Below are positions 6,394 to 6,579 of a stretch of DNA of 7,819 bases, in pieces. Under the pieces are notes generated by a model. It was given only the letters and a program-made list of their open reading frames with translations. It did not search any database and was not told the DNA's origin. Within the stretch, counting starts at the first letter, position 1; every line of letters begins with the position of its first letter. The position numbers and the translations under genes are program-made. This DNA is from a virus. Its lineage: Duplodnaviria > Heunggongvirae > Uroviricota > Caudoviricetes. Where the stretch lies: the IMG/VR virus record IMGVR_UViG_2547132252_000009; one strand, written 5' to 3'.

Positions 6394-6579
6394 TTAATCT
6401 CGGGCGGCGTTTAACTCTTTATTCAGTAAATCAGACTGATACTGATTTGGCTTTGTAATGATACTGTCAAGTTTTGATATATGAAATTCAACATGTTCTG
6501 GACAGTTAAAAATGTAATAACCGCCCTTCTCTAAAAAGCCAGAAAGAGCGTTACAGGCAGGGCATGGTTTGTTTGGCAT
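6394..6579 (-). CDS. Small Cys-rich (CPAC ... NCPEH) zinc-ribbon-like protein, 61 aa, on the opposite strand inside the dicB-type operon
   Basis: ATG 6579 preceded by GGAGG with 5-nt spacer (tggaggataaaATG). The track's 85-aa version starts further upstream without an SD. Confidence 0.6.
   Translation of the reverse strand: MPNKPCPACNALSGFLEKGGYYIFNCPEHVEFHISKLDSIITKPNQYQSDLLNKELNAARD

Follow-up and report, generated by a model that had tools for sequence, protein, structure and literature searches.

The prophage gene examined here, ECs1061, has its closest described counterparts in two lambdoid prophages, Rac and e14. The Rac gene sieB of Escherichia coli K-12 (locus L147, 6406-7312) lies antisense within the early-left operon, converges with the DUF1391 gene ydaF (a ydfA homologue), whose 3′ end it touches, and is located upstream of the DicF-like small RNA (sRNA) kilS and the cell-division inhibitor kilR; kilS has the DicF terminator region in common. 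Expression of sieB genes occurs while the prophage is repressed. Similarly, the small gene ymfI of e14 (locus L148, 5498-6085) is antisense, with its 3′ end running into that of the convergent early-left gene ymfJ. Taken together, the positions of sieB and ymfI indicate that antisense lysogen-type accessory genes at this early-left site are a recurring architecture. In the current study, we describe ECs1061 in a 7,819-nt stretch of a Caudoviricetes virus (IMG/VR record IMGVR_UViG_2547132252_000009; hereafter, the window), which matches E. coli O157:H7 chromosomes at 100% identity. ECs1061 represents a new family at a position of a type already known, that of an antisense accessory gene in a lambdoid early-left operon, and it belongs to a two-gene cassette occupying a hypervariable slot next to the sRNA DicF.

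The ECs1061 open reading frame (ORF) consists of 61 codons on the minus strand (6394-6579; ATG 6579-6577, stop TAA 6396-6394) and encodes MPNKPCPACNALSGFLEKGGYYIFNCPEHVEFHISKLDSIITKPNQYQSDLLNKELNAARD, with a CPAC motif at residues 6-9 and an NCPEH motif at residues 25-29. Its translation initiation region, AATGGAGGATAAA (minus strand, 6580-6592), abuts the ATG and contains the Shine-Dalgarno (SD) sequence GGAGG (6589-6585) followed by the 5-nt spacer ATAAA. The ORF converges with the plus-strand gene at 5818-6207 and is antisense to the ydfA-ydfB-...-DicF-dicB unit, lying 337 nt upstream of DicF (plus strand, 6916-6967; Rfam match, 76.9 bits), with dicB annotated downstream of the latter. An initial annotation of the window had described this ORF with the same coordinates, motifs, and GGAGG ribosome-binding site (RBS), and its reading of the gene as antisense to a ydfA-dicB unit and convergent with a ydfC-like gene is borne out by the coordinates, the Rfam match, and the annotated dicB. 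The annotated order in O157:H7 runs from a DicA-like repressor through relB, relE, ydfA (DUF1391), ydfB, a 129-aa hypothetical protein, and the 61-aa ORF on the opposite strand to dicB, a DUF1482 protein, an exonuclease, an excisionase, and the integrase, with yccA adjoining. The 61-aa ORF is ECs_1061 (ECs1061; Sakai 1166120-1166305) of Sakai prophage Sp4 and WP_001133046.1 in the NCBI PGAP annotation; having long been annotated as hypothetical, it is not a new gene call, and a literature search found no paper naming ECs1061 in its main text.

The likeness to sieB is one of genomic position alone: Pfam, NCBIfam, and PADLOC yielded no match of ECs1061 to SieB, and the two proteins lack sequence or fold similarity, SieB being a 162-aa protein with a superinfection exclusion annotation and ECs1061 a Cys/His protein of 61 or 80 aa. 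The region upstream of sieB and its RBS likewise differ from those of ECs1061.

From sequence comparisons, ECs1061 is a real coding sequence of a protein family without characterization, because purifying selection, family conservation, and a shared start site all point the same way. Compared with the L024 allele (68% identical), the Nei-Gojobori ratio of nonsynonymous to synonymous substitution rates (dN/dS) is 0.16 in frame versus 0.47-1.44 in the other five frames; compared with the allele of strain A19 (91% identical), the corresponding values are 0.11 and 0.34-1.8. C6, C9, C26, and H29 are invariant in six sequences, down to 48% identity, and P7, G20, Y21, F24, and P27 are also kept in relatives at 95, 67, and 48% identity. 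Moreover, in each related prophage that was examined, this RBS and ATG lead into an open small ORF. The initial annotation had named an absence of transcription or translation, together with an absence of conservation in related prophages, as what would count against the gene; the relatives are instead conserved, with dN/dS of 0.11-0.16. The only significant family found for the 61-aa protein and its relatives in Pfam, PHROGs, NCBIfam, and PADLOC is phrog_10133, a PHROGs family without functional annotation (E 7.3e-48; residues 1-61 aligned to positions 5-65 of the 65-position profile), and Pfam returned no match for the 61-aa protein at E up to 1. An exhaustive HMMER scan of 1.84 billion representative proteins retrieved one true distant relative, P0005; two giant repeat proteins from the same scan with many matched stretches (P0003 and P0004) were dismissed as Cys-rich repeat noise. 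By a profile search of 5.8 billion proteins, the family amounts to five clusters. Matches by tblastn to 50,697 sequenced phages were at chance level only (E >= 0.2), and two GTDB genome scans, one with the partner domain and one with the small protein, found none in a collection that holds one genome per species and in which K-12 is without the cassette. Within E. coli, the ORF DNA is present in 387 of 5426 genomes and the adjacent block in more than 3500; the O157 allele accounts for 386 of the 387 carrying genomes at 99% identity or more, in single copy in all of them. GC content is lower over the ORF (0.36-0.39) than in the adjacent block (0.50-0.55).

Similarity between the window and thousands of E. 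coli prophages ends at the RBS and first codons of the ORF (approximately 6565-6579), and past this junction approximately 85-95% identity extends through a 335-nt block up to DicF. Judged by where the alignments break, the initiation region (6580-6592), which is the same in all alleles, is the right-hand mosaic junction of a variable slot. In about 50 IMG/VR and RefSeq loci with the shared RBS and block, at least five ORFs, unrelated to one another and 61-94 aa long, begin at the shared ATG: a 64-aa ORF (MSEQELK...), a 69-aa ORF (MPNKxxxPLIEK...), the ECs1061 family (61 or 80 aa), a further 61-aa ORF (MSDKLINPF...), and a 94-aa ORF (MAKFTVRIELRD...). Every small-ORF type is accompanied by its own C-terminal type of the plus-strand gene, an N-terminal segment of which ('MEFKDLP..IQEIAA') is common to four of the five cassette types; loci with the 94-aa allele carry a different plus-strand ORF of 48 aa. 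The two cassette genes abut or share 0-75 nt at their 3′ ends, and the Qin prophage of K-12 has neither the RBS nor the ORF. The ECs1061-type gene and its partner domain co-occur in 14 IMG/VR loci as well as in L126, L131, L132, and strain A19, although the physical overlap of the two genes makes strict co-occurrence weak evidence for a functional pair. The most distant case is L126, where P0005 (48% identical to ECs1061) is encoded antisense in an early-left operon and overlaps the 3′ end of its convergent gene by 119 nt; the product of that gene is 32% identical to the C-terminal domain of ECs1063, the convergent partner of ECs1061 (E 4e-14), and this locus lacks DicF and uses another RBS.

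The 94-aa allele also links the slot to e14, as a member of the YmfI family behind the same RBS and ATG in other prophages. In L039 and L087, where the RBS is identical, this allele matches Pfam GhoS (a type V antitoxin endoribonuclease) at 21.2 bits against a cut-off of 21, a borderline match, and NCBIfam YmfI at 48.9 bits, below the model cut-off; no GhoT-like partner was found near it in either locus. ECs1061 and its relatives are not matched by the GhoS and YmfI profiles, which recognize only the unrelated 94-aa allele; YmfI is a protein family other than that of ECs1061. The cassettes further resemble polymorphic toxin/immunity or toxin-antitoxin pairs in combining a constant N-terminal segment and a variable C-terminal domain with a co-varying small gene, and in that both members are damaged together in one lineage. 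Unlike such pairs, the cassette genes are convergent and overlapping rather than in tandem, and profile searches recognized no toxin or antitoxin domain.

The damaged lineage is that of the window itself. Relatives of ECs1061 have 80 aa (84-91 aa as called) versus 61 aa in the window, where codon 62 has changed from TCA to TAA by a single substitution at position 6395, the sole change at that codon. Past this stop, the lost C-terminal tail survives in frame as a remnant, GRSGPLKILQRPTIVELD, that ends at the ancestral stop codon (6339-6337; whole remnant 6337-6393, minus strand); it matches the tails kept in 80-aa relatives, namely SGRSGPLKILQRPTIVELD (P0002/L131), SGRTGPLKILQRPTIVELD (A19), and SGYTGPIEVLPRPRLVELD (L024). 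The lost 19-residue tail is itself under purifying selection (dN/dS 0.11 over codons 63-80). As the alignment reads, the window copy of ECs1061 is truncated and decayed. The convergent partner in the ydfC slot, ECs1063 (plus strand, 5818-6356), carries a 1-nt deletion near 6079-6080 that splits it into the annotated 129-aa ORF (5818-6207), which reads out of frame over approximately its last 40 residues, and a 50-aa ORF (6204-6356) that is not annotated and holds the true C-terminus; its relatives are single intact proteins of 179-186 aa. The partner is split in each of the eight IMG/VR loci that carry the 61-aa allele, and both genes are intact in all six loci with the 80-aa allele as well as in L131, L132, and strain A19. 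Since the O157 form is clonal, the double lesion represents a single event in evolution rather than co-loss that recurred. ECs1061 and ECs1063 are thus best annotated as the truncated gene and the frameshifted gene of one cassette. Gene calls elsewhere in the family vary at the other end: P0022, P0027, and P0031 (135-199 aa) extend the 80-aa gene too far at the N-terminus, into the non-coding block, and in L131 (Logan SRR14842321), which has an otherwise intact, near-identical allele, ATA replaces ATG at the equivalent of window position 6577, with the gene call beginning at an in-frame ATG inside the SD sequence (MEDKIPNKP...). The ATA is either another route of gene loss or a sequencing error.

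The proposal that ECs1061 is zinc-ribbon-like was followed through profile searches and structure prediction. The single-sequence AlphaFold model was of no use, with a predicted local distance difference test score (pLDDT) of 50, and the five-sequence model was usable (pLDDT 80), showing four strands and a helix. Its predicted strands (residues 3-5, 12-18, 21-26, and 30-35) flank the Cys/His motifs, such that two conserved CxxC/CxxH knuckles would sit on beta-hairpins, as they do in a zinc ribbon; metal binding is what we infer from this arrangement. Small zinc-ribbon proteins (PF13453, HVO_2523, and ZifS, PDB 8yoz) resemble ECs1061 in this respect, its CPAC and CPEH motifs being 16 residues apart on predicted hairpins, and several independent weak matches to such proteins all fall on residues 3-33. 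However, every one of these matches is below threshold (E 0.02-0.1; TM score 0.25): Pfam PF13453 (Zn_ribbon_TFIIB) scored 14.7 bits against the 80-aa relative with a cut-off of 22, NCBIfam HVO_2523 scored 13.3 with a cut-off of 60, the best PDB profile match (a Pogo ZNF domain) had an E of 0.044, and the five-sequence model had no structural match in the PDB. ECs1061 also differs from these proteins in its putative fourth ligand, a His, and in a C-terminal helix and tail without counterpart. ECs1061 is also unlike the TraR/DksA-type phage zinc-finger regulators: Pfam gave no match to zf-dskA_traR at E up to 1, and these proteins place a C4 finger after a coiled coil, whereas ECs1061 has the opposite order, its Cys/His module being N-terminal and its helix coming after it. 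Thus, the zinc-ribbon label of the initial annotation holds for the conserved knuckle motifs and predicted hairpins but not at the level of any profile cut-off or PDB match, and the searches it had proposed gave a full-length phrog_10133 match but no Pfam or PDB identity.

The region between the ORF start and DicF (6580-6915) is a conserved, structured non-coding block that carries the DicF precursor on the plus strand and the upstream and leader region of the ORF on the minus strand. It is approximately 335 nt long, is approximately 85-95% conserved among prophages with unrelated flanks, and folds much better than shuffled sequences on both strands (z -3.7 and -3.4), with no family matched in Rfam. 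The block may hold DicF-precursor processing sites, an antisense promoter and leader, or both. Downstream of it, the sRNA differs between prophages (L024, L052, and L003 were compared); in those with the 80-aa allele (L024), it is divergent and KilS-like, and the absence of an Rfam DicF match at the gathering score in L024 indicates that the block is common to DicF-type and KilS-type loci. A 110-aa minus-strand ORF (6581-6913) that ends one base before the ATG was rejected as an upstream gene because 1-nt indels among its homologues disrupt the reading frame.

A consensus scan of the minus strand from the ORF to DicF found no sigma-70 site at 9/12 or better. A candidate sigma-70 promoter was identified by eye at 6673-6701 (minus strand; TTTTCA 6701-6696, 17 nt, TAAACT 6678-6673), which at 8/12 is below the threshold of the scan and, like most of the block, is invariant in 23 upstream variants. 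An inverted repeat (minus strand, 6586-6614; CTCCATT 6614-6608, AATGGAG 6592-6586) has conserved arms and a variable loop, and pairs in the minimum free energy fold of two of the five alleles folded; it could possibly sequester the SD sequence. A weak terminator-like hairpin on the minus strand (6331-6346) overlaps the ancestral stop of the antisense gene, and a minus-strand terminator or attenuator (hairpin plus T-run, approximately 6630-6600) was rejected as a conserved feature because other alleles lack the T-run. A transcript signal that may come from ECs1061 is seen in uninduced cells, with values of 10 in lysogeny broth (LB), 5 in LB at pH 9, 0 in LB at pH 4, 12 in LB at 15 °C, 11 in LB with nitrite, 0 in LB with SOS-inducing antibiotics, 35 on solid LB, 14 in minimal medium, 5 in spinach juice, 0 on radish sprouts, and 14 in faeces. 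Elsewhere, a motif (TGyGCCTGTCTTTTCACCACTTCAGGCTCGGTGGTATsCT) lies upstream of both P0005 (L126, 4930-4985) and e14 ymfI (L148, 5420-5470), with a looser version at Rac sieB (L147, 6575-6610); it looks like a -35 element and an extended -10 promoter with a hairpin, and may be a common promoter or operator of these three antisense genes.

How these features might work together can be considered from the expression of DicF, which in K-12 is cut from a polycistronic ydfABC-dicF-dicB transcript (PMC5069750); a minus-strand transcript that started in the block and crossed the ORF would therefore be complementary both to the DicF precursor and to the partner mRNA at its 3′ end. The explanation we favor, tentatively and at somewhat less than an even chance, is that the lysogen produces the small protein, which acts as cognate partner (antidote or regulator) to the variable C-terminal domain encoded by the convergent early gene, that transcriptional and RNA-level interference would be a side effect of the antisense transcription, and that both halves of the cassette are decaying in O157. 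In favor of this explanation are the persistence of the pairing at 48%/32% identity in L126, where the RBS is different and DicF is absent, the fact that each slot ORF type comes with its own plus-strand C-terminal type, the paired lesions, with the partner split in all 61-aa loci and intact in all 80-aa loci, and the positional analogues sieB and ymfI. The initial annotation had instead proposed an independently transcribed moron, and several features fit: the presence of ECs1061 varies among otherwise homologous prophages, its GC content is lower than that of the neighboring block, its orientation is independent of the operon, and it may be transcribed in uninduced cells. In that case, the small protein would act by itself in the lysogen, perhaps by excluding superinfecting phages, defending against phages, or modulating the host, in the way of SieB from the corresponding slot of Rac, and the convergent gene would be a mere neighbor. 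We regard this as rather doubtful, since the zinc-ribbon-like gene is never seen without the partner domain, even at 48%/32% identity behind another RBS, no PADLOC defence model or SieB-like feature was matched, and both genes are damaged in O157. ECs1061 differs from typical morons in further respects, having candidates only for promoter and terminator, travelling with part of a neighboring gene, and having its junction inside its own RBS and first codons instead of in an intergenic region; the moron proposal thus stands as to patchy presence and deviating GC content, but is doubtful as to independence.

An unlikely alternative places the function at the RNA level: convergent antisense transcription, with translation preventing Rho termination, would reduce the read-through that leaks into DicF, dicB, and ydfD, all of them toxic, in the lysogen by transcriptional interference and RNA duplex formation, and the encoded protein would be secondary. 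Against this account, each ORF family is kept open, ECs1061 is under protein-level purifying selection with its tail included, K-12 Qin keeps its dicBF operon silent without the RBS and the ORF, and plus-strand DicF processing alone can explain the conservation of the block. That the ORF in the window has no function at present, being just a dead pseudogene left in a decaying cryptic prophage, we consider quite unlikely, even though the nonsense codon removes a conserved 19-aa tail, the partner is frameshifted, the prophage integrase is frameshifted in strain TR01, and the allele is nearly invariant (at least 99% identity in 386 genomes), as clonal inheritance predicts.

ECs1061 is a modest curiosity and no new kind of system, and the value of the window itself lies mainly in annotation, including the recognition of 135-199-aa database proteins as over-extended calls. 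The main interest lies outside the coordinates of the ORF, at the RBS/ATG junction next to DicF that is shared by unrelated small genes, each with its co-varying convergent domain. The intact 80-aa/186-aa pairs of porcine enterotoxigenic E. coli, Salmonella, and strain A19 lend themselves to testing the proposed role directly. If that role is true, the slot upstream of DicF would be an exchange site for small lysogen-expressed genes of E. coli prophages, in the same position that is held in Rac by sieB, a gene of known function, and antisense transcription would be an unstudied input to the expression of DicF and DicB. DicF and DicB affect cell division, phage resistance, and virulence regulation in enterohaemorrhagic E. 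coli. A more far-reaching reading, which we rate as improbable, is that the RBS/ATG next to the DicF-precursor block is a docking point of polymorphic cassettes in lambdoid prophages, each combining a variable effector domain at the C-terminus of the early-left 'MEFKDLP...' protein with a cognate lysogen-made small protein transcribed convergently, and that antisense transcription gates DicF/DicB. Were it true, the zinc-ribbon-like family would be one antidote or regulator among those carried by the cassettes, and the slot would represent an undescribed convergent toxin/immunity-like or defence hotspot wired to cell-division sRNA control.
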